In this document: positions 13,953-64,000 of the stretch, in pieces
Layout of the letters: each line of letters opens with the position of its first letter
Numbering within the stretch: the first letter of the stretch is position 1
Virus record (IMG/VR): IMGVR_UViG_3300035157_001069
Span: 2,062 to 66,061 of that record
DNA: 64,000 nt
From: a virus
Lineage: Duplodnaviria; Caudoviricetes
Direction: 5' to 3' (one strand)
The notes under the pieces: generated by a model
Databases searched by the model: none
Told to the model about the DNA's origin: nothing
The model's input: the letters and a program-made list of their open reading frames with translations, nothing else
Translations under genes and position numbers: made by a program

Positions 13953-13976
13953 TTTAATTTGCAGACTGGAATAATT

Positions 13977-41538: not shown

Positions 41539-41575
41539 AAATAGTGAATAAAAATAAAAGAGTTATATTTGTTCA

Positions 41576-42465: not shown

Positions 42466-42487
42466 GGAACATGATTTTTTTCTTAGG

Positions 42488-46339: not shown

Positions 46340-46386
46340 CGAAGCTTAGTCACAATATTCCTATGATCGTATTCTAATAACTATTT

Positions 46387-47205
46387 CTAGGTGGCGACTG
46401 AATCCTGCATATACGACAACTTTTGGGGCTCAACCCAATTCACGTATTTAGACATATTTTCGGTATCCATATTTAATTTCTTACATTTATAAAACTGAGG
46501 AGCATTTGGCCTATTGTCTACACATTCAATAGACGTATGGACATAATCAGCATTATGACGCTTATCAGGTCTTTCCCTCCACTTACCATTCACCTTCTCG
46601 TATCTCTTCTCGTCGAAAGGAACATCGTAATCTTCTATGTATTGCCACACGTCATCATGAGTCCAATCACGTAATGGATACAAAAATGTCGGTCCTTCAG
46701 GCAATGTTCTTGCTTCTACTCTCGTACCAGCGTCCCCTCCAAGTATTGGATCTGAATCACAACGTTTATGTCCAATCCATATTGCATCAAATATTGGTAC
46801 TTCTAGTTTTTCTTGTGTTGGTCTATTCAAAATATCTAAAGCCGTCACAAAAGGCAAATCATCAACAGGCTCTGTGATACCTGTTGGACAAGTTAAAACA
46901 GTCTTATTTATTCTGTAATAATTTTGCACTTCAAATTCATCCCCACTACGTTGCATGGCTGTAGCGAAAGGATGCCATGTATGAACAAATAAATCCCATT
47001 CTCGAATAATCCGATCATGAAACTCGTATTTAAAAGGCTGCCATAATTCCCTGAAGAATATGACAGGTACACGAATGCCATGTCGTCTTAACAAATGCAG
47101 TAAAACCATGCTGTCTTTCCCTCCAGACCATGCAACCATGGTTGAAAGAAAGTGGTTTACTGATGTATCAATAATCTGATCTGTGCGTTCTAGCTTAGTA
47201 AGCAA
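46387..47205 (-). CDS. PAPS reductase family (PP-loop) protein
   Basis: VAWSGGKDS, G.KRCDS and YPLRDWT.DDVWQYI. Confidence 0.85.
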   Translation of the reverse strand: MLTKLERTDQIIDTSVNHFLSTMVAWSGGKDSMVLLHLLRRHGIRVPVIFFRELWQPFKYEFHDRIIREWDLFVHTWHPFATAMQRSGDEFEVQNYYRINKTVLTCPTGITEPVDDLPFVTALDILNRPTQEKLEVPIFDAIWIGHKRCDSDPILGGDAGTRVEARTLPEGPTFLYPLRDWTHDDVWQYIEDYDVPFDEKRYEKVNGKWRERPDKRHNADYVHTSIECVDNRPNAPQFYKCKKLNMDTENMSKYVNWVEPQKLSYMQDSVAT

Positions 47206-51191: not shown

Positions 51192-51407
51192 TCATTCTTG
51201 TACCTCAAATACTTGTGTAACCGACTGCTTCAATACATATTTATGTAGAAGCCATGTATTCATATTAAACACTAATGTAGAGAGAATAATTACGCCTACA
51301 GGTGTGATAGGCGTGTCTTCCAATAAGGCTCCTAGTAAAGCGAAACCTTGCTTCGTATGCAATTCCATTTCGTCAGGTGTAATTTGAACTCGCACCTTTT
51401 TTCTCAT
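51192..51407 (-). CDS. Hypothetical protein
   Basis: Coupled to the upstream gene (TAATG). Confidence 0.45.
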   Translation of the reverse strand: MRKKVRVQITPDEMELHTKQGFALLGALLEDTPITPVGVIILSTLVFNMNTWLLHKYVLKQSVTQVFEVQE

Positions 51408-53602
51408 TAGCGCCTGAAGCGATTTGTATTAATAGGAGAATTAGTTAAGTTATAACCTGTGCTTGCTATACCTGGTTGAGGAGTGTTAGATGCAGCAGCT
51501 TTTATACTATTAGCTTCTGTTCTTAGTCTCTGCATTTCCTCGCCAAATTCTGAAACCAAACGTGCTCTTTCTTGTTCTTGCAACAATAAGCTACGATCTC
51601 CTGGGTCTATATTTCTTCCTCCAGTAAGAGCATTGATCACTTCGTTCAAAGGTCTGTCCAAATCACGAGGTAATTTTCCAGTGCTTGATCCTAAAAGCTT
51701 TGATTGTAAAGGTAATAATGTTTTGTCTCTCATAGTATTAGCATCATTTGCTATAGGAATCATTCCGTACTGTGATGCAAATAATTCGTTAATAGCATCG
51801 TAATAAGCCGGAGTAAATCGATTATTTCTACCGACACGATAAGTTACATAGTCAACCCCATCGGCTCCTGTAGTTGGAGACGCTGGCCAATATCTACCAT
51901 CAGGACCTAGTTCCTGTAAAGGATATAAAGCAATTCTTTTGCCATCAGGCGTTTTGGTCACGTAAGGAGTGTTTTGACTTAGGCCATAAGCTTTAAGAGC
52001 ATTATTTATTTCAGCAGCACTATATTGGCTGCCGTAACCACGCAAAGCATTTATATCTGTGACTGCCGGATCACCTACTGCAAAAGTAACTAAAGGTGTT
52101 CTATTTTCTTGTTCTAATGTATTTAGAGCTTGAGCGATTGTCATAGATCTATCTATTTTTTTCTGAGTCGTTAGTCCTTTCTGATTCCTTACGGTATCTG
52201 CAATCATACCCCTTTCATCTCTTCCTAACGCTTCTCTGCGTCTCATGTCATTAGATAAATTACTGGTATCTAAGCGACCTACATCACCCTCGTTTTCTAT
52301 TAATAAACCTAACCTTGCAGCAATAGCAGAATTTACGGGTTCTGTAGGATCAATCATTCTGACCGTTACTTGAGTAGGATCAATTTTGCGATTACGTCCT
52401 TCAAAGTAAACAGGAGCATTGTATTTGGTTGTTGGCTTCCCTGTTCTTTTGTCTTTATATGTATTCTTATTAGCACTAGCCATTAAAACGGGAACGGCAT
52501 AAGCTTCAGTTCGTTGTCTCTTTGGCAATCCAACTTTTGCCTGCCGAGACTTGCCAACAACCGTTTCTCCACCGGGAGATGCTACTCGACCTTGGTCATC
52601 TACTAAGGCAACAGCATCAGGCGCTACTTCTTGGAACTGTTTATCTGGATCCATCTGCTCACGCCTGAGGAAGTTAGCTAAATTGCTTAAATCTTTGCTC
52701 TTTTGTTCTGAAGCAGGTACGTTTTGTCCTTGAATATTCGCAGATTCACTCCCTGTATCCAAAGATCCTGTTTTTAAAGCGATTCTTAACGCATTTGTAG
52801 CAGGATCGGGTCCTAATTCGCCTGATTGTCGCTGTGCATTGGCGCTGGCAGACGAAATCCGATTGCTACTACGCGATTCCACCGCTAATTCGTAAGCTTG
52901 AGCAGTGTCTAGGTTCAATCCACCCGCCAAACGCACTGTTTCAGCAGCTAATTCAGGCCCTATTTCTCCAACTCGCTTGTTTAAATCAAATGCAACACGC
53001 TGCATTGCCTCTGTAGGTTGCATTGAACGTGGCAACATTCCATTATCCCCTTGCACAGTAGTCCTAGGAGCCCCTTGTTGAACTACATACAGACCTGTAT
53101 CAGGTGCATTTAATATGGTTTTTGGATTTTCTTGGATAACAAGGTTACTAACTGTCTTTCCAGAGTCATCATCACCGATATAATCAACTTTTGTGCCAAA
53201 ACCTTTGATTGGTAATTGAGTTGCACCAACTTTTTTGGGGACGACTTCAGTCGATTCATCATATTTATTTTGCAATCTTGTATCTTTAGCAGATAAAGAA
53301 GCAAGGGCATTGCGTCTCGCGTCGACTTTATATCCTCGCTTGTCTGCGCGTGTTTGAGGTCTATTAGTTGTAGCTGCTTTCCACTGCTGAGAAGTTATTT
53401 TCTTCTCCGAAGTATCACCATCCGCTAAATCAGCAAAGACTTCTTGTTCTAACTGCTTATCTCGCTCCTTCTGTGTAAGAAAATCATTAAGCTCCTCCTT
53501 AGTTGAGAACCAACGCATAGGCTTTGGCGTGCCTCTCCTGTTGTCATTAGTGTCATCGTTCCACAGACGAAACTGCCCAACGCCACCTAAGCCTGAAGCC
53601 AT
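51407..53602 (-). CDS. Large hypothetical protein, possibly internal virion
   Basis: 731-aa ORF. Confidence 0.7.
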   Translation of the reverse strand: MASGLGGVGQFRLWNDDTNDNRRGTPKPMRWFSTKEELNDFLTQKERDKQLEQEVFADLADGDTSEKKITSQQWKAATTNRPQTRADKRGYKVDARRNALASLSAKDTRLQNKYDESTEVVPKKVGATQLPIKGFGTKVDYIGDDDSGKTVSNLVIQENPKTILNAPDTGLYVVQQGAPRTTVQGDNGMLPRSMQPTEAMQRVAFDLNKRVGEIGPELAAETVRLAGGLNLDTAQAYELAVESRSSNRISSASANAQRQSGELGPDPATNALRIALKTGSLDTGSESANIQGQNVPASEQKSKDLSNLANFLRREQMDPDKQFQEVAPDAVALVDDQGRVASPGGETVVGKSRQAKVGLPKRQRTEAYAVPVLMASANKNTYKDKRTGKPTTKYNAPVYFEGRNRKIDPTQVTVRMIDPTEPVNSAIAARLGLLIENEGDVGRLDTSNLSNDMRRREALGRDERGMIADTVRNQKGLTTQKKIDRSMTIAQALNTLEQENRTPLVTFAVGDPAVTDINALRGYGSQYSAAEINNALKAYGLSQNTPYVTKTPDGKRIALYPLQELGPDGRYWPASPTTGADGVDYVTYRVGRNNRFTPAYYDAINELFASQYGMIPIANDANTMRDKTLLPLQSKLLGSSTGKLPRDLDRPLNEVINALTGGRNIDPGDRSLLLQEQERARLVSEFGEEMQRLRTEANSIKAAASNTPQPGIASTGYNLTNSPINTNRFRR

Positions 53603-53635
53603 TACTACTTTTCCGAGACTATATCTATAACAATT

Positions 53636-54061
53636 CTATCTGTTTGCTACGTACATCTTATTTTGCTCTTCAAGCCCTTGCAGTGCAACGCTAACCGCAT
53701 CTTCAGGACTTAGTCGAATAGGCATGTTATTGGCAGAAGGCTTATTTGTTTGGAATCCAACTGTGACTTGACCTGTACCAGGTATGCCAGGTATATCTGC
53801 CTGTGCATCTACAAACCATGGTTTATCTTCGGGACTATAAGAAAAGGATCCTCTTCTATCGATTCTTAATCCGGGAGCTATTTGACCTTTAAGCAGTAAA
53901 TCGCGCACTCTGTTGACATCTTCATCTTTAGTATCAACCGCCCCAGCCAAGCGAAGAGTGTAGTCTTTCATCGCCAATTCTGGGTCAGTAAAGCTCATAT
54001 CCATCAAATTTGGATCGACCTGCATCGCCCCTTGTTGGAAATGCTCTTTAAATAAATCCAC
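53636..54061 (-). CDS. Hypothetical protein
   Basis: 141-aa ORF; first gene of the minus-strand block. Confidence 0.6.
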   Translation of the reverse strand: MDLFKEHFQQGAMQVDPNLMDMSFTDPELAMKDYTLRLAGAVDTKDEDVNRVRDLLLKGQIAPGLRIDRRGSFSYSPEDKPWFVDAQADIPGIPGTGQVTVGFQTNKPSANNMPIRLSPEDAVSVALQGLEEQNKMYVANR

Positions 54062-54737
54062 AATTTATATCTATGGGAATATACCTAGTTTAGACGCCTC
54101 GCCCCGCGTGGAATAGGGTGTAAAATTTTTTAAGAAATTTTTAGGGCGCATTTGTCCTGATGAATCATTTATTCCCTATATAGACGCCTCGTGGAAAAAA
54201 TCTGATTTTTGTTGCGCCGCGCCCTATACATTAAACACCCACCCGCAGCCGCGATACCTTTCAAACAAAAAAAAGATACGGCACAAAGCATACGCAATGC
54301 ATTCAAATGTTAATGAAGCACTGACGTATGTTAGTTAATTGTTAACAACCGCATTCTTTTTTGCGCGCTCATGCATACATATGCGCAGTCAATTGTCACT
54401 TATGAAATTTCTATGGAAGCTTTCCTATGTTTCGCTTTAGCAATGCACTTGTTCCTCCTTAGCTTCTGTGGATGCAACAGTTATCCAGTGCGTATGCGCA
54501 TGCATAGCGCGTTTTTCCCGAGGCTCTCGCTTGCTCTGCGCGGTGTGCCAAACCAATTGACATATACTGTTCCCTCCCCACGCTCACGCTTCGCGCTCGC
54601 TCCGTAACTGTGCAAAAGCTTCCTATATTTCCCCACTATGTATTATTAATACCCTATGACTACGCTTAGTAGTTAATCCATCCCTTATAGCTACTTTAGT
54701 CTCAAACGTCTACCTTTGATGTTAATCGTATGTTAGT
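54062..54737. other. Non-coding strand-switch region; candidate genome end, pac site or origin
   Basis: Direct repeat TAGACGCCTCG at 54091 and 54181, A/T tracts, TGCGCA/ATGCAT palindromes and CGCTCGC runs. Confidence 0.5.
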
Positions 54738-54757
54738 TGTCCTCAAACAACAGTGCA
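54738..54757 (+). promoter_or_regulatory. Early-region 20-bp motif, copy 1
   Basis: TGTCCT-CAAACAAC-AGTGCA; ATG 4 nt downstream. Confidence 0.75.
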
Positions 54758-54761
54758 ACTT

Positions 54762-55001
54762 ATGACTACGCTTGTTTCTCCTGCAATTACCAAGACATCA
54801 TACATTCACTTCTTCGATGGTACGTTGTATGAATTCCATGTTAATTGCGCTTGTCGTCAAGCAAGGATAACTAAGTGGACCAAATCAAGAGGCAGGAAAG
54901 GCAGCCAATGCACATCAGTCAGCCTGCAGTCAGCCAAGGCTATCTATGCCAAGCTCAAAAAGCAGGCGCAGTTGGTAGGTTACTTTCCTATCTCTTCTTA
55001 G
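54762..55001 (+). CDS. Small early protein
   Basis: ATG directly after motif copy 1. Confidence 0.6.
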   Translation: MTTLVSPAITKTSYIHFFDGTLYEFHVNCACRQARITKWTKSRGRKGSQCTSVSLQSAKAIYAKLKKQAQLVGYFPISS

Positions 55002-55006
55002 TCACC

Positions 55007-55048
55007 AAGCCCTTCGGGGCTTTTTTACTGTCCTCAACTAACAGTGCA
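55007..55048 (+). promoter_or_regulatory. Terminator hairpin plus motif copy 2
   Basis: AAGCCC-TTCG-GGGCTT, T-run, then TGTCCT-CAACTAAC-AGTGCA (55029-55048). Confidence 0.8.
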
Positions 55049-55049
55049 A

Positions 55050-55232
55050 ATGAAGTACTACCTCGACATAGGCGGTTTACCAATGGCAACTTCTACTTCT
55101 TTGGGTTACTTAAGAAGTATGAAGAAGAGGCTTGAAAAGTTTATTGGGCAGCCTGGGCTCATCAAGAAGATGAATGGTCAGCCTGTCGCAGAAGTCGCTT
55201 ACATCCCTTTGGATGATGACTGTCCTTTCTAG
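55050..55232 (+). CDS. Small early protein
   Basis: ATG 1 nt after the motif. Confidence 0.6.
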   Translation: MKYYLDIGGLPMATSTSLGYLRSMKKRLEKFIGQPGLIKKMNGQPVAEVAYIPLDDDCPF

Positions 55233-55237
55233 GATTT

Positions 55238-55279
55238 AACCCCTTCGGGGGTTTTTTACTGTACCTATCTAACAGTGCA
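55238..55279 (+). promoter_or_regulatory. Terminator hairpin plus motif copy 3
   Basis: AACCCC-TTCG-GGGGTT, T-run, then TGTACC-TATCTAAC-AGTGCA (55260-55279). Confidence 0.8.
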
Positions 55280-55280
55280 A

Positions 55281-55436
55281 ATGAATTCTATCTTCGATGG
55301 TCTAGTCTGGTTTGCTATGAATCATACTCGCAAGTATCTGCTTGCTTGTGTGATACTTGGCACGCTAATCAGATGGTTCTGGGTCGGCCAATCAGTCAGC
55401 CGATTCTGGAATCCACTAGCCCCAGTATTCATGTAA
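55281..55436 (+). CDS. 51-aa hydrophobic early protein, absent from the ORF track
   Basis: MNSIFDGLVWFAMNHTRKYLLACVILGTLIRWFWVGQSVSRFWNPLAPVFM; fills the space between motif 3 and the next hairpin. Confidence 0.6.
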   Translation: MNSIFDGLVWFAMNHTRKYLLACVILGTLIRWFWVGQSVSRFWNPLAPVFM

Positions 55437-55441
55437 AGCCC

Positions 55442-55500
55442 AATACCCCTGCTCAGTTTTATGGGTAGGGGTTATTTACTTGCCCTCATATAACAGTGCA
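55442..55500 (+). promoter_or_regulatory. Hairpin plus motif copy 4
   Basis: CCCCTGCTCA/TGGGTAGGGG stem with G-U pairs, then TGCCCT-CATATAAC-AGTGCA (55481-55500). Confidence 0.8.
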
Positions 55501-55503
55501 ATT

Positions 55504-55671
55504 ATGAGTTTGTATCATGTTTTAATTGACAAATCTCCTGTCTACTCCACAAGGGATTTCTATGCAGCCTGGGTGGAATACGGTACTTTAGAATCCATCT
55601 TCAGAGACGAAGAGCATCGCATTGACTTCGTTTCCATAGAGGGGTCAAAAGCCTATATCAGGAAGCACTAA
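55504..55671 (+). CDS. Small early protein
   Basis: ATG 3 nt after the motif. Confidence 0.6.
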   Translation: MSLYHVLIDKSPVYSTRDFYAAWVEYGTLESIFRDEEHRIDFVSIEGSKAYIRKH

Positions 55672-55700
55672 TAATACATCAGTACTACCCCGTCTATCCC

Positions 55701-55771
55701 AATCCCCCTATCCTCGGTCGGCCTATTACGGGTCGGGCGGGGATTTTTATTTGCACTCATATAACAGTGCA
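55701..55771 (+). promoter_or_regulatory. Hairpin plus motif copy 5
   Basis: AATCCCC..GGGGATT stem, T-run, then TGCACT-CATATAAC-AGTGCA (55752-55771), which has perfect dyad arms. Confidence 0.8.
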
Positions 55772-55795
55772 TTGTTGTTTATTTCTACCCTCAAC

Positions 55796-56248
55796 ATGGC
55801 TTCAACAAAATCAGCAGCTGCAACTGCAACCAAGGTGACCACAAAGGCTCCTCAAAAGGAACTACCTTTGACCACCAAAGTTGTAGCTAAGCCAACCGAA
55901 GAGAAGAAGGAAGTTTTCTTCAATCTTCAAGGCCGCATCTGGACTCCAGAGCTACTTGAGAACATCAAGGTTGGCAAAAACCAAGCTGGTAACAAGAAGA
56001 TCAGTTTCTCTGCTTCACTATCTCGTTATGACGATAGAGCAGGGAAATACATCAGCGGTAAGCTTATCAATTTCATAGCTACTGACAACGGCTATGGCAA
56101 TCTAGCTACCGCGATATTAGATGCCCATGGTAAGAACGAGAGATTGATTGAGATGAAAGCTCAATTCAATGCTTGGGAGTACCAAGGCAGCTACTACGAG
56201 AACTATCAAATTGTAGAGTTCTCTGTTATTGAAAGACCTCAACAGTAA
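55796..56248 (+). CDS. Possible OB-fold single-stranded DNA-binding protein
   Basis: FNLQGRI..ISFSASL..FIA..LA..I.M.AQF strand pattern resembling SSB. Confidence 0.45.
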   Translation: MASTKSAAATATKVTTKAPQKELPLTTKVVAKPTEEKKEVFFNLQGRIWTPELLENIKVGKNQAGNKKISFSASLSRYDDRAGKYISGKLINFIATDNGYGNLATAILDAHGKNERLIEMKAQFNAWEYQGSYYENYQIVEFSVIERPQQ

Positions 56249-56256
56249 CAATCCCT

Positions 56257-56317
56257 ATACCCCATCTAGCAATCCAATGCTGGGTGGGGTATTTTAATGT
56301 CCTTATACAACGATGCA
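56257..56317 (+). promoter_or_regulatory. Hairpin plus motif copy 6 (variant)
   Basis: ATACCCCATCTAGCA/TGCTGGGTGGGGTAT stem, then TGTCCT-TATACAAC-GATGCA (56298-56317). Confidence 0.7.
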
Positions 56318-56321
56318 TCTC

Positions 56322-56660
56322 ATGCTATCTAAGTACGACCAAGAACCTCCTCGCCATCAAGATACATCTATATATATAGGTGGATTGACAGCCGAAGAAT
56401 CCCTTGAATTATTGAATATTATGCATCTTTCTTCTTCTCGCAAGTTAGATAGATTGCATCACGCTCTTTGTAAAGGTATTGAGCTTCATGTTTTCGGTGT
56501 CGAGAACAAGCTCTCCAAACAAGATCAACAATTGAAGGGATACGCTGAAGCTGCAGCAAGGAACGAGGCGATAGCCGACGAAAAGGCCGAAAAACTTAAG
56601 GATTTCGCCAGAGGCGCAACTGAATACTCAACTCTCAATGAGGACACCGAAAATGAGTGA
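56322..56660 (+). CDS. Hypothetical protein
   Basis: ORF directly after motif 6. Confidence 0.6.
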   Translation: MLSKYDQEPPRHQDTSIYIGGLTAEESLELLNIMHLSSSRKLDRLHHALCKGIELHVFGVENKLSKQDQQLKGYAEAAARNEAIADEKAEKLKDFARGATEYSTLNEDTENE

Positions 56661-56829
56661 CCGACGTGGATTCGAAGGTCTTCCTAAGAAGATCAACCCT
56701 GATAAGACTGAATGGATAGGCACTCACCTAACTACCAGTCTTTACGAGAAAGAAGAGATTCCAGATCTCAAAGGATACGCAGCCGATCAACTCCTGTTCG
56801 ACGATACCCTTGACGAGTCTCACATATGA
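56653..56829 (+). CDS. Hypothetical protein
   Basis: Coupled small ORF (MSDRR). Confidence 0.5.
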   Translation: MSDRRGFEGLPKKINPDKTEWIGTHLTTSLYEKEEIPDLKGYAADQLLFDDTLDESHI

Positions 56830-57209
56830 CTAAGACACCTGCAACTGATAGCTATATTTCCTGCCGTGCTTATATCGGAAGGAAGGCTATCGAAGTTCAG
56901 CCGGTTCCACCATGCGAAGTCCATAGCGAGTATGAAATGCAAACTCATTATCGGATTGTTGATGTTGTTATCGACAAGCAAGGTAATGCTGCATTTGAAT
57001 TACATCGCATCGACCACGAATGCGTTAACACTGTTCCAGAATTCTGTGAATCTGAACATCTTCTCGCATCAATAGCATGGACTAAGCCCGCGCTATGTCT
57101 AGAGTGGCCGTCACGTTTCTCAGTTCCTGTGGAGGATGCTTTAGCTCCTCCTTTGGAAGAGAGTAACGAGAAGTATTGGACAAGCCCTTATTGGCGAATA
57201 TTCAGATAA
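56826..57209 (+). CDS. Hypothetical protein
   Basis: 127 aa; ATGA coupling with the previous gene. Confidence 0.6.
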   Translation: MTKTPATDSYISCRAYIGRKAIEVQPVPPCEVHSEYEMQTHYRIVDVVIDKQGNAAFELHRIDHECVNTVPEFCESEHLLASIAWTKPALCLEWPSRFSVPVEDALAPPLEESNEKYWTSPYWRIFR

Positions 57210-57214
57210 CAATT

Positions 57215-57261
57215 ACCCCGCCGTTAGGTGGGGTTTTTTATTGGCCGTAACCAACAGTTTC
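57215..57261 (+). promoter_or_regulatory. Terminator hairpin plus motif copy 7 (variant)
   Basis: ACCCCGCC/GGTGGGGT stem, T-run, then TGGCCG-TAACCAAC-AGTTTC (57242-57261). Confidence 0.6.
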
Positions 57262-57277
57262 AACCGGCCTACACATT

Positions 57278-57694
57278 ATGGATCCCGATACCATCCCATT
57301 CGATTGGGACAAAGAGAAAGAACTCCCAGCAGAAGTTTACGACTATGACTACACAGATGAATCCAACCTCTCTATCTTATATACAGACATTACAGATTTG
57401 ATTTTGACAGTCATTTCTAAGTTTGCATACCTGATTGGATTCGTTAAGAACACCTTGGCTGCCACGTTCGATGGCATCCTCCCGTTCGTTATAGGCATAT
57501 CTGTCAAGATTCTGTACAAACTTCACAAAAAAGATTTTCTACTCAACACAGCCAAGAAACTAGATTCGATCAACCCAAGGAGAACCATTATTTGGTACGA
57601 CAAAAACGGGCGTGGTCACGGTTTAGATGGACGTGTTGTTAAAGGTTCTTCTAAGAGAACCCAGTCCCCCACTAAAGTTCAGCCTGCTCCATGA
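57278..57694 (+). CDS. Hypothetical membrane protein
   Basis: Acidic N-terminus, hydrophobic middle, basic end. Confidence 0.6.
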   Translation: MDPDTIPFDWDKEKELPAEVYDYDYTDESNLSILYTDITDLILTVISKFAYLIGFVKNTLAATFDGILPFVIGISVKILYKLHKKDFLLNTAKKLDSINPRRTIIWYDKNGRGHGLDGRVVKGSSKRTQSPTKVQPAP

Positions 57695-58302
57695 AAGAGT
57701 TAACCTACGACAATCTCAAGGATAACGACGACCCTGATATTACTCCTGGTTTGCATGAACCATTAGTGATTGATGATGCTATTGACCAAATGGCATTCGT
57801 AGAGATTAAACGATGGATTATAGAAGGTGACTTCCCATGGTTCTTACAGAAAGGTGTTGTCGGTGAGACGGAGTATGCCGATGAAGGGCAACCGACAGAG
57901 GAGGTACTTTGCGATCAATACGACAACCTCCAATTTCAACATTCGTTCTATTCAGATAAGAGCTTTCATACAGAAGCCTGCAACCCTATGTGGGTTCCAA
58001 TCTTAGCTCGTCTGCGATCTAAAGCTTTAGTTAGAATTAAAGCCAACTTAACGTTGAGAACCGAGTCAGTCGTCAAGCATGGTTGGCATCGAGATGCTTC
58101 ACCTCCTGAACATTACCCAGGGTTGAGGACAGCGGTCTACTATCTCAATACCTGTGATGGCTTTACTGAATTGAAAGAGACTGGTCAGAAAATCTACAGC
58201 AAAGAGAATCGCTTGGCTGTTTTTCCTAACCATATGTTCCATACTGGAACCACCACTACTAATGATTTTGGAAGATATGTCGTCAATTTCAACACCTATT
58301 GA
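57691..58302 (+). CDS. 2OG-Fe(II) oxygenase
   Basis: RIKANL..WHRD..YYLNTCDG.T..HTGT..RYVVNFN. Confidence 0.85.
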   Translation: MKELTYDNLKDNDDPDITPGLHEPLVIDDAIDQMAFVEIKRWIIEGDFPWFLQKGVVGETEYADEGQPTEEVLCDQYDNLQFQHSFYSDKSFHTEACNPMWVPILARLRSKALVRIKANLTLRTESVVKHGWHRDASPPEHYPGLRTAVYYLNTCDGFTELKETGQKIYSKENRLAVFPNHMFHTGTTTTNDFGRYVVNFNTY

Positions 58303-58873
58303 AAACCTGCCACCAGGAGTTGTAGTTAAAGACAACTTATTGCCTCTTCGGTATTACCAAGAACTTGAGTCTTACATGACAGGCGTCAGTATCGACTGGC
58401 ATCAAGGAGCAGTTAATGACACACTAGATCCCGCTATGCCTCCAGAAGATAGGCAGTATTTCACTGAATACTATTCTCAAGATCCGAGGAGGAATTGGCA
58501 GTTTGCTAAATCCATATACAGCACTGCGCCTGTGTATATAGCTGACACTTTTCCTCTCTTCGGTCCCTTACTTGAAGCTCTTGATGTCAAGTCATTGATA
58601 AGAATCAAGCTCAATCTAAAGACTGGATCTGAGAAAGTTTTTGACTACCCTTGGCATAACGATCAAAATCCAATAGAACGTTTCGGAGATCATTGCAAAA
58701 CAACGGTGCTACATATAGGTAGTAACGATGGTTTTACAATCTTCGAGCAAGGTGGGGCTAGAGTTCCCACCGTGGCTAATAGAGCCGTCATCTTCCCTAA
58801 TAAGTTGAAACACGCAGGTACTACCTGTACTGATCAACCTATTAGGGCTGTCGTCAATATTAACTATTACTAA
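58277..58873 (+). CDS. 2OG-Fe(II) oxygenase, paralogue of the preceding gene
   Basis: RIKLNL..WHND..NDGFT..HAGT..RAVVNINY. Confidence 0.85.
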   Translation: MSSISTPIENLPPGVVVKDNLLPLRYYQELESYMTGVSIDWHQGAVNDTLDPAMPPEDRQYFTEYYSQDPRRNWQFAKSIYSTAPVYIADTFPLFGPLLEALDVKSLIRIKLNLKTGSEKVFDYPWHNDQNPIERFGDHCKTTVLHIGSNDGFTIFEQGGARVPTVANRAVIFPNKLKHAGTTCTDQPIRAVVNINYY

Positions 58874-58946
58874 TGACTTCTTTTATCATTCTTGTCTGCG
58901 TAATTATTCTTTTGTATATCCTGCTCAAGAATATACATCAAAACTA

Positions 58947-59177
58947 TTAAGCTCCGTAAGCAGGCTCTGGCTGATAGCTACCATTCAATGCATATTCTGG
59001 CTGGCTATACTCCGGAGCCATCTCATTCTGGAAATCTTTAAGCAAAGAACGGGGGATTAATTTGTCTCTGCGAAAACCTCTTTTTAATGAGCTTAAATCC
59101 CCTATGTTCATCTCATCCTCGAAATCCATTTGATCGTCGAGGTTGAATAAATCTCCTGCAAATCTTAATCCTTCCAT
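58947..59177 (-). CDS. Hypothetical protein
   Basis: Likely start MEGLRFAG. Confidence 0.55.
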   Translation of the reverse strand: MEGLRFAGDLFNLDDQMDFEDEMNIGDLSSLKRGFRRDKLIPRSLLKDFQNEMAPEYSQPEYALNGSYQPEPAYGA

Positions 59178-59316
59178 GAACCTAATTCTCTCTCTTGGCA
59201 AATGCGAACCGTTTCCTCAAATGCAATGTATTTAGAACCGTGAGTTTGACCATGAGCTTCCATGGAGAACAGTACCTTTCTAGCTATGTCACATTCCGTA
59301 GGAGTGGGTTGTTTAA

Positions 59317-59922
59317 TCATGAAGTTAGTTGATTAGCACGTTCGATTACTTGCTCTTCACTAGAAGTCAAGTAAGACATCAGATCCACTAAAGCTGCACC
59401 TGAAGCGGTGATACCACTACCAGCTGCGACAGCACCACCTATCCTTAGACTTCTATTGTTAGCAATAGCTTGGTTCATAGCTCTTAAATTCTCTGGTATA
59501 TTCAACCACTGTGGATTATCTTTCGCTACCGCTTTCAAGATTGAAGCTACTTCCTCTGGTCTAGCTGTACTGATGTACTTGAAAATATCTTCTTGAGCAC
59601 CTTTCAATACTCCCTTCCCTCTACGAATACTTGCACCTTCATAAGCGTCAGACAGAAGGTAATCTCTTACCTGCTGCTCTACCGCTTGGTTAGGAACAAA
59701 TCCTTTGGTGGTGATATTAAAATCACTATCTCTTTCCTTCGCTCCTAAAGCACCTAAAACTGCTTCTAAATTCACTCCTTCAGCTTTTCTACCTTGGCGA
59801 GTAGCCCTAGCTTGATGCTGTCGAGCAATCTCTGTATCAGCATCACTCAAGGCTTTATCTAAAGCTTTAGCTGCGTCTTCAAAACTACGTACGTTCTTAA
59901 CCCTTCCGTAAAGTTGCTCAAA
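59317..59922 (-). CDS. Hypothetical protein
   Basis: About 200-aa helical ORF; likely start MFEQ. Confidence 0.6.
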   Translation of the reverse strand, partial: FEQLYGRVKNVRSFEDAAKALDKALSDADTEIARQHQARATRQGRKAEGVNLEAVLGALGAKERDSDFNITTKGFVPNQAVEQQVRDYLLSDAYEGASIRRGKGVLKGAQEDIFKYISTARPEEVASILKAVAKDNPQWLNIPENLRAMNQAIANNRSLRIGGAVAAGSGITASGAALVDLMSYLTSSEEQVIERANQLTS

Positions 59923-59956
59923 CATCAGAACTTTAATCAATTACTTCTTATAGTTT

Positions 59957-60006
59957 AAGACTTCTTAATTAAGAGGTCTTTTTTAGTGGCCTCATCCAAC
60001 AGTGCA
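59957..60006 (+). promoter_or_regulatory. Hairpin plus motif copy 8
   Basis: AAGACTTCTT/AAGAGGTCTT stem, T-run, then TGGCCT-CATCCAAC-AGTGCA (59987-60006). Confidence 0.8.
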
Positions 60007-60052
60007 ATGTGTGTTGTTGGTGGGGTTGTTGTTTACCTCACAACTTTGACTT

Positions 60053-60436
60053 ATGGTCAATTTTTTCTCAAAAAGCAAGCCTCTGCATCAAGAGTTCTTT
60101 GGTGGCTTCCTCACCTATTCCAGGTGGAGAGAAGATACTGGAACTTGCAACCAATGGAGTAGCAAGCTCTTCGGTGATCTAGATAAAACATTCAGAACCT
60201 ACTGGGCTAACCCAGAAGCAATTCTGAACAATCTAGAACTCACCGAATTGTTAGCTGCTCCAACAGCAGGGGCTGAGTTTACTTATGTAAACAAAGATCA
60301 GGAGAAAGTTTATGGCCGAGTGATCGACGGATGGACTATCCCAGGTGAAGATGTGAATTTCAAGATTGAACAAATCAAGAAACAAGCAGATGCACTCAAG
60401 TCAGCACCAACTGTTGTAGAAGCGTCAGCCGCTTAA
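60053..60436 (+). CDS. Hypothetical protein
   Basis: 127-aa ORF followed by a TTCG hairpin at about 60445-60460. Confidence 0.65.
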   Translation: MVNFFSKSKPLHQEFFGGFLTYSRWREDTGTCNQWSSKLFGDLDKTFRTYWANPEAILNNLELTELLAAPTAGAEFTYVNKDQEKVYGRVIDGWTIPGEDVNFKIEQIKKQADALKSAPTVVEASAA

Positions 60437-60513
60437 CCAAAGTCGGGGGCTTCGGCTCCCGCACTTCACAACTCCTGATTATTCGGCATCATATTCATAC
60501 AATCAGATACACA

Positions 60514-60714
60514 ATGACCCATTATGTTTCTCAACCATCTACGATTACTAGCTCTCGTGATGGGTTGTCTGAACTTCTTGACGCCATCAAGGAAGCGCAG
60601 AATTCCTTCTCGCAAACACCAACAGGAGAACATAGGAAAGTTGAACAGCTTATCCAACTCATCGATAGCCGAATCGAAAGAGGAGCGCTATCAAATCAGC
60701 CCCTTTCGTGGTAA
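60514..60714 (+). CDS. Hypothetical protein
   Basis: 66-aa helical ORF that fits the gene spacing. Confidence 0.5.
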   Translation: MTHYVSQPSTITSSRDGLSELLDAIKEAQNSFSQTPTGEHRKVEQLIQLIDSRIERGALSNQPLSW

Positions 60715-60734
60715 TTTTCGCCACCTTTTAATAC

Positions 60735-61409
60735 ATGACCTCAAAACAAACCTCAGATGGGTCGAAGAATTCGACTCAGAAATTGACGCAGGAAACCACT
60801 GCCTCGCCTTCTACTCGGGAGATCTCTTCGATGGAAGTATTGGCGAACCAGCCCCGCCAAGATGTCTTATCAACGCTAGCTGTTCAGATACGCGGGTCGA
60901 TTCTTGCTATTGAAGAGTCGGTCGATCTGATCAATAGTGAAGATCCACTAGAACGTCAGCATGCAATGGAGGAGATGGAAATGTTCCTCCAAGGAGTTGC
61001 AAGTGATAGAGAAGAACTCTTTAAACGAGCAGACGAATTACTTACTTTCCGAGCAGCCCTTCGTGAGCGTGCTCGCTACAGGAAGAGTGAATCCGACCGT
61101 ATTAGAACCATGGTCAAAAGTGATACCGACAAGGCTGATCGAATAGAAGCCACGGTCATTCGCATGCTTAGGCTTGCTTTAGAAGACCAAGGTGCTACTA
61201 AGTTCGATCTACCTATGCACGAAATCAGATCAAGGATGACCACCCAAGTTGTCATTGATGATTACGAATGTGCAATGGAAACCCTTCCTGAAGACTGCAG
61301 GAAAGTTGAAATCAAACCTGACAAAGCAGGTATCAAGAAAGCTCTGCAAGATGGCAGAGTCATTCCAGGATGTCGGTTACATACCGATAGATCTTGGCGT
61401 TCCAATTAG
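60735..61409 (+). CDS. Siphovirus Gp157-family protein
   Basis: Coiled coil then VVID..LPED..K..KPDKAGIKKALQDG..IPGCRL. Confidence 0.8.
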   Translation: MTSKQTSDGSKNSTQKLTQETTASPSTREISSMEVLANQPRQDVLSTLAVQIRGSILAIEESVDLINSEDPLERQHAMEEMEMFLQGVASDREELFKRADELLTFRAALRERARYRKSESDRIRTMVKSDTDKADRIEATVIRMLRLALEDQGATKFDLPMHEIRSRMTTQVVIDDYECAMETLPEDCRKVEIKPDKAGIKKALQDGRVIPGCRLHTDRSWRSN

Positions 61410-61420
61410 CCCTCAAAACA

Positions 61421-62077
61421 ATGTCTAAGTATCTACCTATTCATCAATTCACCACCAATCCCATGCCTAGTAGGCATAAGGACGAACGGGGTGAGTCTTT
61501 GTACTACGCACGCTTTAACTTCTTGCCACGAGGGAAAGATAGTCAAGCTTGTGTGTCATTTAAGCAAAGTAACGCCGACCTTATTAAGAAGGGAGGCTTA
61601 TTCAGTACAAACAACACACAAATTGCTGGGCAAAGGTATGTCACCAAAATCAAATGGAATGATGAATGGAAAACAGAAGAGCTTGTATTTGAAAACCAGT
61701 CATCCTGCAGCGACAACCAGATGGAAGAAAATTATTCGGAGTCTCCAGAAGATTTCCGTGAACAAGGAGGATACAACGATGATGATGCTATTACTGCCGG
61801 GCCGCCGCCGGTAAAGATCAAGCCTTCGTCCCAGTCAGGCTGGAGAGATCGTACTACCAACATCGCCATGGATGCAGAAAGTCGATTAGCTTCTCAAAGC
61901 CCTGAGTTTAAGTACATCGTCGACCAAGTGATAGATGCAATGATCTATGCTTCCCACCGACTTGGTGTTAAACCTGCCTTTAGCCCTGGCGAAATACAGC
62001 GTGCTGTGGTTTCATGTGCAATAAATGGTAAGCACTCGCTATGGCAGGGTCAAAATGAAATCTCACAGAGTCTTTGA
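61421..62077 (+). CDS. Hypothetical protein
   Basis: Likely start MSKYLP; follows the Gp157 gene. Confidence 0.6.
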   Translation: MSKYLPIHQFTTNPMPSRHKDERGESLYYARFNFLPRGKDSQACVSFKQSNADLIKKGGLFSTNNTQIAGQRYVTKIKWNDEWKTEELVFENQSSCSDNQMEENYSESPEDFREQGGYNDDDAITAGPPPVKIKPSSQSGWRDRTTNIAMDAESRLASQSPEFKYIVDQVIDAMIYASHRLGVKPAFSPGEIQRAVVSCAINGKHSLWQGQNEISQSL

Positions 62078-62215
62078 ACTTTCGTTTCTATTTCGCAAGA
62101 GATGGCCATTCATCAGGATACGTACTAAAACTTTAGTTGAGTATGTTGATACGTGGCCTCCTAAGCCTCCTTACCCAGCTACTCTCGATTCTTATCGAGC
62201 TATGGAGCAAGACTA

Positions 62216-62419
62216 ATGTCCTCTCATCTTCACACCCTCTTGTCGATGGGAGTACAAGTCGGACTCAAGAAAGGAGCAGATCAGTGGGCGTGGCATCCGA
62301 AAGGAGATCATGTCATGTCCTACCGATTCACTAAAGGAGTAGGAGGGGATGGGGTTAAAATCTCCACTCCTGCTGCACATACAGAAATTCATCTTATTAA
62401 TTCTCTTCTTCACCCATGA
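62216..62419 (+). CDS. Hypothetical protein
   Basis: Coupled small ORF. Confidence 0.45.
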   Translation: MSSHLHTLLSMGVQVGLKKGADQWAWHPKGDHVMSYRFTKGVGGDGVKISTPAAHTEIHLINSLLHP

Positions 62420-62649
62420 AAACCAACAGAGCTTTTAAGCACGCTAAAAACACCTTGGTCTACAAGTCACGTTTAGATGACCGAGGTGTATATAAAGTCG
62501 AATATTACGATAAGCAGCTTGATCAATATTGGTTAAGAAAAGTATCTACGGGATGCAAGCATACAGTAACTGTTGCGAAGCATGACGACCTCAGACTATA
62601 TACCAGACGTGACTGTGAGAGAGCCGATCAATTGAAGAAAGCATCATAG
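62416..62649 (+). CDS. Hypothetical protein
   Basis: ATGA-coupled 77-aa ORF. Confidence 0.55.
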   Translation: MKTNRAFKHAKNTLVYKSRLDDRGVYKVEYYDKQLDQYWLRKVSTGCKHTVTVAKHDDLRLYTRRDCERADQLKKAS

Positions 62650-62732
62650 CTCGATTACAGGAAACCGAATTTATTACCATAAGATGCATCTCTTAGACTA
62701 TTGTGGATTCCTATCACTTCTCGTAATTCTTT

Positions 62733-62957
62733 ATGGAGTTGCAAGGAAAAGCAGACACAAGCAAGGAGGAAAGCGTTATGGGTTCTATGCTCACCGGCAG
62801 TCTCATTCCTAGAGATGCTAAGCAGTTAGATCATGTCGATGAATACTTTGATTGCATTACTGCCTGCCCTACCCATGCAGACACTGAATGTGTTACCGAG
62901 TGCGTCGATCAGCTTCGAAATACTAGTGATCCACAACTAGACGTTCCTTCGTTTTAA
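62733..62957 (+). CDS. Small Cys-rich protein of picocyanobacterial type
   Basis: DEYFDCITAC....ECVTECVDQLR. Confidence 0.65.
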   Translation: MELQGKADTSKEESVMGSMLTGSLIPRDAKQLDHVDEYFDCITACPTHADTECVTECVDQLRNTSDPQLDVPSF

Positions 62958-62960
62958 ATA

Positions 62961-63143
62961 ATGACATACAAACAGACATGGGAGGTTCATTTTCAACCTC
63001 CTAATGAAATCTTGCCGTGCATTTTTATAGCACCAAAATGTACCTCTTCAGAGGCTTTAACCCTCTTTCAGCAGAGCATACCTCCTGATCAGAGAGGTCG
63101 ATCCTCCCAATGGAGACTTGAGCCAGAAGATGATTACAGCTAA
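62961..63143 (+). CDS. Hypothetical protein
   Basis: 60-aa ORF. Confidence 0.45.
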   Translation: MTYKQTWEVHFQPPNEILPCIFIAPKCTSSEALTLFQQSIPPDQRGRSSQWRLEPEDDYS

Positions 63144-63166
63144 GCTGGAAAAGCTTTCGTAGGACT

Positions 63167-63436
63167 ATGACTTTAAAAGTTATTTATGGTGTCAAACAAG
63201 GGTATGACTCCGAAGAAATAGATGCATTTGAAAATCCAGATGATCTTCTCAGTTGGTTAAACTCTCAGGTATCGATGGAAGCTAATCCAGCACATATCGA
63301 CAAAGTTCAGTTTCCTATAACTATTGCTAAATGGTTGTATGACGACGAAAACGACGAGCTCAAAGGTAATCCAGTGGATCATCAATTACCTAGTGATCCA
63401 AAAGGATTGGATTTTACTGTCAATGTTGAAGAGTAG
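63167..63436 (+). CDS. Hypothetical acidic protein
   Basis: 89-aa ORF with AGGA ribosome-binding site. Confidence 0.6.
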   Translation: MTLKVIYGVKQGYDSEEIDAFENPDDLLSWLNSQVSMEANPAHIDKVQFPITIAKWLYDDENDELKGNPVDHQLPSDPKGLDFTVNVEE

Positions 63437-63935
63437 CTCTAATCATCCACGCAGCTTTACAAGTCTCTCCTAGTAACTCACCTAAGTAATTAGCAACATC
63501 GTAATGCTCTGCGGCTTGAGCAGCAGGCTCAACCATCTTGATAGTTTTCTCAAAGGTTCCTAAGTTGTCATGATATGTAGTCAGCATTCCTGCTGGCTCA
63601 TAGCAGTCACAATGTTTAAAACAAGGACCTAAAGCATCCTTAAGTCCGACAGAGCACATAGGCATGTAATAGTTCAAAATCCGAACGTATTCACCTAGTT
63701 GATCGAATTGAACAGTATGTGCTTCATACTGAGCCTTAAGAAAATTATGTACAGCTAAAAAATTAGGAGCACAGTAATTGAAATGAATTAAATGAGATTG
63801 AGTCTGCAACTCTTTAGCAAAGGATGCAAGCAATAGCAGCTTTTGACCTACGGCAGCATTACTATCTGTTGGCTTATCTTCAGTAGTTACAACAATCTGT
63901 AAATCAGGATCATGCCCTTGATCTTGTACTTCCAT
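63420..63935 (-). CDS. Dps/ferritin-like protein
   Basis: H..HFN...NF..VH.FL..QYE....D.LGEYVR and K.AWMIRA. Confidence 0.8.
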   Translation of the reverse strand: MEVQDQGHDPDLQIVVTTEDKPTDSNAAVGQKLLLLASFAKELQTQSHLIHFNYCAPNFLAVHNFLKAQYEAHTVQFDQLGEYVRILNYYMPMCSVGLKDALGPCFKHCDCYEPAGMLTTYHDNLGTFEKTIKMVEPAAQAAEHYDVANYLGELLGETCKAAWMIRATLQH

Positions 63936-63937
63936 TT

Positions 63938-63997
63938 AAGAAACCTTGACTGATCTTAGTTTAGGTTTCTTTTTTAATGCGCTCATACAACAGTGCA
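63938..63997 (+). promoter_or_regulatory. Hairpin plus motif copy 9
   Basis: AAGAAACCT/AGGTTTCTT stem, T-run, then TGCGCT-CATACAAC-AGTGCA (63978-63997). Confidence 0.8.
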
Positions 63998-64000
63998 TTG

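Follow-up and report, generated by a model that had tools for sequence, protein, structure and literature searches.

Terminator and motif units between the early genes of an uncultured cyanophage as candidate composite terminator-promoter cassettes

The closest described systems are the PeSL cassettes of T4-type phages, in which a terminator stem-loop is combined with an early promoter (Arbiol et al. 2010, PMC2839356; Comeau et al. 2014, PMC4122927). PeSLs are small composites arranged in one orientation within hyperplastic regions, where they lie mostly before ORFans and coincide with the junctions of indels and replacements among close relatives. Their promoters follow the sigma-70 consensus, having -35 and -10 boxes and AT-rich sequence further upstream, and the start codon is preceded by a Shine-Dalgarno sequence. 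Excised mini-circles between neighbouring units are a further PeSL trait.

The window considered here is a 64-kb stretch of a 66-kb (66,061-bp) incomplete contig with an estimated completeness of 78% (CheckV). Judged by its genes, the source is an uncultured marine cyanophage that carries psbA and is related to Synechococcus phage S-EIV1. The psbA gene occupies 34960-36045 of the window, the capsid protein, portal-like protein and terminase share 70%, 48% and 51% identity with those of S-EIV1, and 9 of the contig's 108 ORFs have S-EIV1 matches. Homologous structural proteins and cyanobacterial photosynthesis genes, the two hallmarks of the S-EIV1-like lineage, are thus both present. Below, G000 denotes this contig, while G001-G005, G009 and G028:C30 are related phage records.

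The early region of this phage shares with PeSLs small composite units in one orientation, a hyperplastic setting mostly before ORFans, and close-relative indels or replacements with junctions in the units. A stem-loop terminator is joined to a promoter, here a predicted one, in a short intergenic unit. Unlike PeSLs, the cyanophage unit has no host sigma-70 consensus -35 and -10; it has instead a private 20-bp signal adjoining the start codon, mostly without a Shine-Dalgarno sequence, and it belongs to an S-EIV1-like lineage with a picocyanobacterial host rather than to T4-type phages. S-EIV1 itself carries a repeat, TGTCCyrAGCATGACrTTAAACTGCT, six times before replication-region genes, but that repeat is 6 nt longer than the motif described below and has no preceding terminator.

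A repeated hairpin, T-run and motif

Within the window the motif takes the form TGnnCT-N5-AACAGTGCA and is confined to 54738-63997. A strict search of both strands (TGNNCTNNNNNAACAGTGCA, at most one mismatch) finds seven copies, exclusively on the + strand, starting at 54738, 55029, 55260, 55481, 55752, 59987 and 63978; 100 shuffles give a mean of 0.05 and a maximum of 2, and none attains seven. With two degenerate copies at 56298 (two mismatches) and 57242 (three mismatches), which are considered real, the array comprises the nine same-orientation copies that an earlier sequence-only reading had proposed. A scan of the 66,061-bp contig allowing three substitutions yields no further good copy, and it also lists about 30 scattered chance matches on both strands, so that degenerate copies 6 and 7 are distinguishable by context only. 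Since copy 9 ends 3 nt before the end of the incomplete contig, the array runs past the window. The features are as follows.

54062-54737, no strand: non-coding control region, flanked by the leftward genes and the first unit
54738-54757, + strand: motif copy 1 (TGTCCTCAAACAACAGTGCA), first unit, without an upstream terminator; ATG at 54762
54762-55671, + strand: four one-gene cassettes (ORFs 54762-55001, 55050-55232, 55281-55436 and 55504-55671)
55007-55048, + strand: unit 2, with hairpin 55007-55022, T-run and copy 2 at 55029-55048; ATG at 55050
55238-55279, + strand: unit 3, with hairpin 55238-55253, T-run and copy 3 at 55260-55279; ATG at 55281
55445-55500, + strand: unit 4, with hairpin 55445-55472, T-rich tail and copy 4 at 55481-55500; ATG at 55504; site of a cassette indel junction in relatives
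55710-55771, + strand: unit 5, with hairpin at about 55710-55744, T-run and copy 5 at 55752-55771 (perfect dyad); a 24-nt leader, then ATG at 55796
55796-58873, + strand: longer early units, comprising a 150-aa ORF (55796-56248), a three-ORF unit (56313-57209) and a unit at 57278-58873 whose last two genes are 2OG-Fe(II) oxygenase-like
56257-56317, + strand: unit 6, with hairpin 56257-56292, T-run and degenerate copy 6 at 56298-56317 (AACGATGCA); ATG at 56313 overlaps the last five motif bases (56313-56317)
57215-57261, + strand: unit 7, with hairpin 57215-57234, T-run and degenerate copy 7 at 57242-57261 (AACAGTTTC); ATG at 57278
59957-60006, + strand: unit 8, with hairpin 59957-59980, T-run and copy 8 at 59987-60006; ATG adjoins at 60007
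60007-63436, + strand: early operon behind copy 8, including a Gp157/Gam-like gene at 60735-61409
63938-63997, + strand: unit 9, with hairpin at about 63938-63971, T-run and copy 9 at 63978-63997; the contig ends 3 nt further on

The first units are single-gene modules, as had been claimed: the copies are spaced by 291, 231, 221 and 271 bp, and the corresponding ORFs encode 79, 60, 51 and 55 aa, with no Pfam family above cut-off for any of these four. A hairpin and T-run stand 1-3 nt 5' of the motif in all eight of copies 2-9 and are absent from copy 1. The terminator scan places them immediately 5' of copies 2, 3, 4, 6, 7 and 8, and the hairpins preceding copies 5 and 9 fold at -22.1 and -14.4 kcal/mol, respectively (RNAfold). 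Over 53600-64000, 20 terminator sites are found as opposed to 7.7 +/- 3.0 in shuffles. The sequence-only reading had proposed that the hairpins fold as + strand RNA, and across six phage records the + strand RNA does give a more stable fold than the reverse complement for 45 of 47 units, by a mean of -6.0 kcal/mol (Wilcoxon p = 3e-9). An intrinsic (Rho-independent) terminator consists of a G+C-rich stem-loop followed by a U-run on the transcribed strand, which is the arrangement found here; by their predicted folding, the hairpins thus qualify as canonical intrinsic terminators specific to one strand.

The hairpin, T-run and motif recur as a unit in five other related phage records. Three of the five near-complete relatives hold 9-12 same-strand motif copies in the same layout, at least three copies are present in 2 of 22 further records, and the first copies of relatives' arrays that lack a terminator still carry the motif. 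The consensus unit across the family is a hairpin, a T-run and TGynC-N5-CAnCAGTGCAWT, followed by an ATG either 0-6 or about 16-58 nt on. Family-wide, the positions kept are T1, G2, C5, C11, A12, C14, A15, G16, T17, G18, C19, A20, W21 and T22, so that the left arm persists only at T1, G2 and C5; in a logo of 54 sites, T1, G2, A12, C14, G16, T17 and C19 reach about 2 bits. The AAC triplet, described earlier as invariant, is so inside this genome but not across relatives, where its middle base is A in 33 and G in 15 of the 54 sites.

Start-codon geometry and the predicted promoter

Each unit is probably a composite terminator-promoter cassette, analogous to a PeSL, with a non-sigma-70 promoter that yields near-leaderless mRNAs. 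An intrinsic terminator, formed in + strand RNA by the G+C-rich hairpin and U-run, would close the transcript of the preceding gene. The motif of 20-22 bp, 1-3 nt further on, would then serve the next gene or small operon as both core promoter and start site, with transcription most likely beginning at or beside the conserved C19-A20. Such a start would leave about half of the early mRNAs leaderless or with leaders of 1-7 nt, and the others would have a leader of about 16-58 nt; several of the long-leader copies have a pyrimidine-rich leader sequence in common.

The position of the start codons carries much of this argument. Among 55 motif copies from six non-redundant records, counting only an ATG that opens an ORF of at least 30 aa, the ATG lies 0-6 nt past the motif end in 24 (null 3.2%, p = 1.6e-21), at 16 nt in one and at 17-58 nt in 25, with none in the other five. 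For copy 6, an ATG-distance scan that began 3 nt before the motif end lists a later in-frame ATG at 56322. The 24 close start codons suggest that the mRNA 5' end falls in the motif or at its end. This geometry suits neither an activator site at -40 nor a sigma-70 promoter whose -10 box lies 7 nt before the start. Reasoning from the bases themselves, whichever register the start codons permit, the would-be -11 and -7 positions are not A and T. A promoter scan of 53600-64000 gave 12 sigma-70-like sites where 20.4 +/- 4.9 are expected, none of them 5' of an early gene, and none on the + strand of 54062-54737. Shine-Dalgarno sequences are mostly missing before these early genes, and a pyrimidine-rich leader is common to the long-leader copies of G028:C30, G001, G002 and G009 but not to window copies 5 and 8. 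Where start codons lie 0-1 nt past the motif, the promoter reading requires efficient leaderless translation in a cyanobacterium. The sole RNA run consists of contigs only; these represent both strands, extend over the non-coding region as well, and may include DNA.

A terminator fused to a non-sigma-70 promoter had been the favoured proposal of the sequence-only reading, and the terminators, the ATG geometry, the conserved unit and the lack of -10 and -35 boxes make it the best-supported one; no T7-like polymerase or sigma factor to read the promoter was found in the motif-bearing genomes searched. T7-type single-subunit RNA polymerases recognise promoters of about 20 bp that are contiguous, phage-specific and conserved up to the start site. 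The cyanophage motif resembles them in these respects, in its better conserved downstream half and in its small lineage-specific differences. However, the polymerase family (PF00940) has no match in any of eight records (G000-G005, G009 and S-EIV1), in agreement with the earlier impression of the window, although the positive control, phage P-SSP7, was found at E = 2.7e-69. Moreover, the first early genes already use the motif, so a polymerase synthesised only once infection is under way would come too late to begin the programme. A phage-encoded sigma factor fares no better: sigma-70 region 2 has no match in G000, G001, G002 or G003, and region 4 gives nothing over cut-off in G001-G003, the records searched, where a single match has E <= 1, a stretch of G001 that scores 14 bits and is broken by two stop codons. 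A sigma-70-family gene is present only in G004 and G005, which are motif-less. Three motif-bearing genomes are 91-100% complete, and the motif-bearing genomes may encode a highly divergent, gp55-like sigma protein.

With no recognisable phage polymerase or sigma factor, and with the motif already at the first early unit, the host cyanobacterial RNA polymerase is the most likely reader. It would be directed by a host factor or by a protein delivered with the virion. To our knowledge, there is no precedent that can be named for a host polymerase reading a 20-bp signal without a -10 box.

Turning to the alternatives, T1, G2 and C5 of the left arm exactly mirror A20, C19 and G16, which hints at a dimeric DNA-binding protein instead of or beside a polymerase. 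The motif could then be an operator overlapping the start site and bound by a dimeric regulator (repressor or activator) from the phage or the host, with polymerase contacts weak or elsewhere; this is unlikely, and it is also compatible with the promoter reading. The dyad is perfect, or becomes so with G-T pairs, in most G003 copies and in copy 5, whose TGCACT/AGTGCA arms had been recognised from the start, and one G028:C30 cassette that this contig lacks codes for a protein whose helix-turn-helix matches stay below threshold. Across the family, however, the dyad is lost. Among the 9 G001 copies listed with the exact core CAGTGCA, 5 have A at position 3; position 4 is mostly C where the dyad would need A or G, and the strongest conservation, CAnCAGTGCAWT, is asymmetric. 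The half-site centres are about 15 bp apart, which would place them on opposite helix faces. Since the sequence upstream is the variable hairpin, such an operator would have no visible separate promoter.

It is quite improbable that the motif acts in RNA, either as a site of processing or as an element that starts translation independently of Shine-Dalgarno sequences, on one or a few long early transcripts that pass through leaky terminators. The motif does always lie between a 3' hairpin, a good protector of 3' ends, and a start codon, and both the scarcity of Shine-Dalgarno sequences and the shared pyrimidine-rich leaders would suit such an element. Nevertheless, up to 14 canonical terminators in series would allow little read-through, and in no genome does a recognisable promoter lie upstream of the first copy. 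For an RNase or ribosome signal, a fixed and mostly single-stranded sequence of about 24 bits would be unusual, and the arms show no covariation of the hairpin type. Within the region, no match to an Rfam family attains E = 0.1.

Gene turnover between the units

Early-region genes are, by protein comparison, almost all unshared while the unit stays conserved. Of 27 early-region ORFs of this contig, BLASTP finds a match for only 6 in G001, 4 in G002, 2 in G003 and 2 in G009; the capsid protein, in contrast, has 84-93% identity. The near-identical G028:C30 aligns with 35483-64000 of the window in four collinear blocks at 88-97% identity and has two additional one-gene cassettes between copies 3 and 4, with one junction in a terminator 5' arm and one in a motif. 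Its counterpart of copy 9 is followed by a 22-nt leader and a 227-aa ORF. The motifs of the two phages differ at 4 of 180 positions where the flanking alignments differ by roughly 3-8%, so purifying selection on the motif is weakly shown.

DNA contigs from two public runs, whose shorter joint sides measure 255 and 240 letters, contain inserts of 177 nt flanked by duplicated 55010-55049 and of 373 nt flanked by duplicated 55468-55500. These duplications correspond to the terminator tail plus motif of copies 2 and 4. The breakpoints of gene gain and loss in G028:C30 and in both runs therefore lie in the units. The public runs are available as contigs only, and no circular cassette junction is listed among them. 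Units of 40-60 bp repeated in one orientation would allow recombination to gain, drop and swap one-gene cassettes, and such unit-to-unit exchange would render the early region hyperplastic. The varied breakpoints, the unconserved dyad and the lack of an integrase over cut-off in the motif-bearing records searched fit recombination between short repeats.

The second proposal of the sequence-only reading, exchangeable gene cassettes, is borne out by these indels as far as the units bound one-gene cassettes, but not in its tyrosine-recombinase or integron mechanism. Motifs that serve as recombinase core sites, with the units as mobile cassettes in the integron sense, are highly improbable: the same-orientation repeats around single promoterless-looking genes, the imperfect dyad with its asymmetric spacer and the presence or absence of entire cassettes between near-identical genomes do recall integron attC sites, but the dyad is not conserved, the breakpoints do not share one crossover position (they fall in a terminator arm and in a motif), the tight coupling to terminators and adjoining start codons is explained by transcription and not by recombination, and PF00589 has no match in G000, as the earlier view of the window had it, nor in G002 or G003, is sub-threshold in G001 (19.1 bits) and G009, and exceeds the cut-off only in motif-less G005.

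G005, from a sister clade, presents the same arrangement: a hairpin and T-run come first, then a TGTnCTC-like box, with the ATG about 20 nt beyond it. Unlike the units described above, its downstream half resembles an ordinary -10 box (TATAnT, GATACT, CATAAT), and its clade encodes a sigma-70-family protein.

An S-EIV1-like marine cyanophage

The source contig, of which the window takes in bases 2062-66061, is linear, 66,061 bp in length and 78% complete by CheckV. Its homology to Synechococcus phage S-EIV1, its psbA gene and its occurrence in marine metagenomes identify it, on sequence grounds, as an uncultured marine S-EIV1-like cyanophage. S-EIV1 was the sole cultured relative in a search of the phage collection, with 70% identity in the capsid protein, 51% in terminase and 48% in the portal-like protein, and it provided matches for 9 of 108 ORFs. 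Relatives of the capsid protein are encoded on at least 593 IMG/VR contigs, and parts of the early region were found in seawater or marine metagenome runs from 10 studies; the source itself may account for two of the rows. S-EIV1-like phages are a widespread cyanophage lineage; in passages of Nishimura et al. 2017 (PMC5332604), the group makes up ~3% of marine cyanophage reads. Besides the window contig, 7 of 15 other related records searched have psbA. Of 16 records searched, 9 have hli-like matches (E <= 0.001), and the window contig is not among them.

Principal coding features of the window contig
On the - strand: terminase, portal-like, HK97-type capsid and tail-fibre-like proteins
34960-36045, - strand: psbA (photosystem II D1; PF00124, E = 1.7e-88)
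~54.7 kb onward, + strand: block of small genes

A repeated terminator-motif unit

The sequence-only reading had listed nine same-strand copies of a dyad motif between 54738 and 63997, and these are real. Allowing at most one mismatch, TGNNCTNNNNNAACAGTGCA has seven matches in that interval, all on the + strand, where 0.05 are expected by chance; the remaining two, at 56298 with 2 mismatches and at 57242 with 3, are degenerate but recognisable by context. Terminator search and folding likewise bore out the hairpin and T-run said to precede each of copies 2-9: a G+C-rich hairpin with its T-run ends 1-3 nt upstream of every one. G-U pairs occur in the hairpins. Folding favours the + strand RNA over its complement in 45 of 47 units drawn from six phages, in line with what had been proposed from the window. 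Between 53600 and 64000, terminator-like sites are enriched (20 observed, 7.7 +/- 3.0 expected). Sigma-70-like promoter sites in the same interval are not (12 observed, 20.4 +/- 4.9 expected), and none stands before an early gene. An Rfam search of this interval returned nothing below E = 0.3, and no tRNA was found.

Upstream of copy 1, a non-coding control region of 676 bp with G+C-rich islands (54062-54737) takes the place of the terminator. Immediately 5' of this copy is a direct repeat, ATGTTARTnG, spaced 11 bp apart; a GTTAGT pair of similar kind lies ahead of the first copy in G001, a complete relative. Within the control region, 54187-54277 (~92 bp) shares 83% identity with the corresponding stretch of another motif-bearing record, G009.

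An exact-motif scan of IMG/VR was rejected as a route to relatives, as its 34 single matches were at chance level; the capsid protein was used instead, and the motif was sought in the whole records of related contigs. Three of five near-complete relatives (G001-G003) have the motif, in 9-12 copies on one strand within an early region of 5-14 kb, and two (G004 and G005) lack it. Two of 22 further records have at least three same-strand copies; three others among the 22, at >=85% completeness, are without the motif, and most of the remainder are fragments. The layout is constant in all motif-bearing records, running from hairpin through T-run and motif to start codon. Since the first copy in each genome is a motif without a terminator, the signal does not include the T-run. 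The logo from 54 sites in six non-redundant records is T1 G2 y n C5 followed, after five positions under weak constraint, by C11 A12 n C14 A15 G16 T17 G18 C19 A20 W T. The AAC described as invariant holds within the window genome but not across relatives, where AGC appears throughout one genome and AAC, ACC and ATC are mixed in another.

Several records have related or additional signals. In a sister clade represented by G004 and G005, the CAGTGCA motif is missing and a sigma-70-family protein (regions 2 and 4) is encoded. Early units of G005 at 32.3-41.3 kb (L168-L171) retain the hairpin, T-run and a TGTnCTC box; ordinary -10-like hexamers come next, ~7-9 nt ahead of the ATG. S-EIV1 (L035, L036) has its own 26-nt repeat, TGTCCyrAGCATGACrTTAAACTGCT, in six copies before replication-region genes. 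Compared with the window motif, it has the TGTCC start and AAC..TGC end in common, exceeds it by 6 nt and is not preceded by a terminator. In G002, whose G+C content is higher, a second repeated word, TTAGGCCTCG, has ~11-12 occurrences (L151-L155).

Features of records without the window motif
G005, 13481-14422, - strand: sigma-70-family gene between the capsid and portal genes
G004, 46194-46859: sigma-70-family gene
S-EIV1: 26-nt repeats before the genes ending at 25869, 29121, 30466, 33554, 38756 and 42957

Start codons and the reading of the motif

The favoured reading is a composite terminator-promoter unit, and the position of start codons bears on it. In 24 of 55 copies, the ATG of an ORF of at least 30 aa begins 0-6 nt past the motif (null 3.2%, p = 1.6e-21). 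Another 26 have an ATG 16-58 nt downstream, and five have no such ATG, one of them at a contig end. The start codons are real, since short ORFs fill the space between the motif and the next hairpin. With start codons only 0-6 nt past the motif, the mRNA must begin within the motif or at its end. This motif-ATG geometry rules out an activator site placed well upstream of the start point, and likewise a sigma-70 -10 hexamer in the normal register, since the would-be -11 and -7 positions are not A and T. A pyrimidine-purine step, such as C19-A20, is the usual start point for bacterial polymerases, and A20 would be the likely transcription start.

Long-leader copies in G001, G002, G009 and a near-identical contig from a GTDB genome (G028:C30) have a common pyrimidine-rich leader spanning the motif to the ATG, which fits a transcript beginning at the motif; in long-leader copies 5 and 8 of the window (55772-55795 and 60007-60052) it is not clearly present. 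In the relatives it is common to copies with an ATG ~20-45 nt downstream, as with TTGGGGTTGTTTCACTTCGCT in G009 and GCTGCTTGACTCCG before the ATG in G002. One such leader lies at 29625-29646 of the reverse complement of G028:C30, beyond the window end. The leader may serve translation by a route that does not need Shine-Dalgarno pairing. One metatranscriptome run, represented by contigs only, matched 6% of sampled words; it covers both strands and the non-coding region and may contain DNA. A contig from it breaks off at 55259, where the T-run ahead of copy 3 ends, and adapter sequence comes next; this gives no more than a weak indication of a 3' end.

Because the motif already serves the first early gene, whatever protein recognises it must be present at injection. 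The candidates would be the host polymerase acting together with a host factor, and a protein entering with the DNA. The sequence-only reading had favoured a terminator fused to a non-sigma-70 promoter and had assigned recognition to a phage RNA polymerase or activator. The terminator and the non-sigma-70 signal stand, but a phage RNA polymerase was not found. The earlier statement that the window has no such gene extends to its relatives, as a profile search with PF00940 gave no T7-like polymerase in the window contig, five relatives, G009 or S-EIV1, and the positive control worked (P-SSP7 polymerase, E = 2.7e-69). The units resemble T7-type promoters in form, but no T7-type polymerase was detected in these phages. 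Sigma-70 region 2 had no match in the motif-bearing genomes searched. For region 4, sought in G001-G005, nothing in G001-G003 passed the cut-off; a single 14-bit match in G001 (E <= 1) has two internal stops. The large ORFs of G001 encode tail-fibre, baseplate or unknown proteins, none of them a polymerase, and its conserved replication-region genes encode a VapE-type primase-helicase, a dCMP deaminase and ThyX. Further Pfam screens of the window ORFs gave no transcription protein.

We infer promoter function, start position and reader alike for this motif. A compact early-gene signal that fits no known promoter class, in phages for which these searches revealed neither a phage-encoded polymerase nor a phage-encoded sigma factor, suggests that an unknown specificity factor is involved. 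It is conceivable, though we consider it rather unlikely, that the signal is read by a transcription component outside current profiles, either a virion-delivered protein (a sigma-like factor for the cyanobacterial polymerase or a new kind of polymerase) or one acting on a hitherto undescribed promoter class of marine picocyanobacteria copied by the phage. If so, all early expression in an abundant lineage of marine cyanophages would depend on leaderless mRNAs, from a promoter type outside the sigma-70, sigma-54 and T7 schemes. The units also offer a clean system for leaderless translation in picocyanobacteria. The literature searched on how cyanophages start early transcription, including leaderless mRNAs, contained no account of the S-EIV1 lineage; the 2015 S-EIV1 paper lay outside that coverage.

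A 731-aa ORF adjoining the control region (51407-53602, - strand) was examined in case it were an unrecognised polymerase. It belongs to no Pfam or PHROG family, is unmatched in the phage collection and finds only a single 96%-identical cluster among 5.8 billion proteins; with no relative found in IMG/VR and none in G001-G003, it is not a shared reader. Compared by eye with consensus sequences, sigma-54-like -24/-12 elements, NtcA sites (GTA-N8-TAC), LexA boxes and Pho boxes misfit in spacing or position. Base replacement (a Z-genome) was weighed as the cause of odd promoters and rejected. The N-terminal domain of a MazZ-like dATP/dGTP diphosphohydrolase is encoded at 2742-3074 (+ strand; PF18909, E = 5.6e-32), but PurZ-type adenylosuccinate synthetase (PF00709) matched 0 of 11 related records; DNA base modification is possible but not indicated. 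A PAPS-reductase/PP-loop protein is encoded at 46387-47205 (- strand). An archaeal host, suggested by a T-rich stretch ~26 nt before leaderless ATGs and by the near-identical contig in an archaeal-labelled MAG, was rejected because of psbA in the window, bacterial-type hairpin terminators and first copies without a T-run. The MAG contig itself covers part of psbA and looks mis-binned.

Gain and loss of cassettes

Early-region genes are almost all private. Of 27 early-region ORFs, 6, 4, 2 and 2 have BLASTP matches in four motif-bearing relatives, at capsid identities of 84-93%. A Gp157-like protein matched only one distant IMG/VR locus. Closer comparisons place cassette differences at the units. 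Between window copies 3 and 4, G028:C30 has two extra one-gene cassettes, each consisting of motif, gene and terminator; one junction falls in a 5' arm common to two terminators and the other inside two near-identical motif copies. A DNA contig from a public run has a 177-nt insert between duplicated copies of 55010-55049, and one from a second public run has a 373-nt insert between duplicated copies of 55468-55500; in both, the duplicated stretch is terminator tail plus motif. Among these contigs, cassettes are gained and lost at the units.

The alternative to a promoter, that the motifs are tyrosine-recombinase or integron-type sites bounding exchangeable cassettes, is supported for the exchange but not for a site-specific recombinase. 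Breakpoint positions differ between variants, and the recombinase profile PF00589 had no match in the window contig, G002 or G003 and sub-threshold matches only in G001 and G009. Since breakpoints differ and no recombinase in the motif-bearing records searched passes the cut-off, recombination between short repeats is the simpler explanation. Tyrosine-recombinase-like matches lie at 41311-42624 (- strand) in G001, at 19.1 bits and below the cut-off, and at ~69011-69403 (- strand) in G005, above it; some members of the lineage may carry an integrase.

For the composite terminator-promoter unit, the closest described system is the PeSL cassette of T4-type phages. As described in two reports (PMC2839356, PMC4122927), PeSLs are stem-loop terminators joined to strong early promoters, and the cassettes cluster before ORFans in hyperplastic regions and mediate modular shuffling. 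Against those descriptions, the window units are alike in architecture, location and evolutionary behaviour, but they are without the sigma-70 consensus that defines PeSLs and come from a different phage lineage and host. Together with population data, the units illustrate how short regulatory repeats would drive the turnover of host-takeover genes in phages other than the T4 group. G028:C30 (34 kb; L173, L174) is 88-97% identical to window 35483-64000 across four collinear blocks, with the indels described above between them, and reaches 4.4 kb past the window end, a stretch that holds a 227-aa ORF, additional ORFs and another terminator-motif unit.
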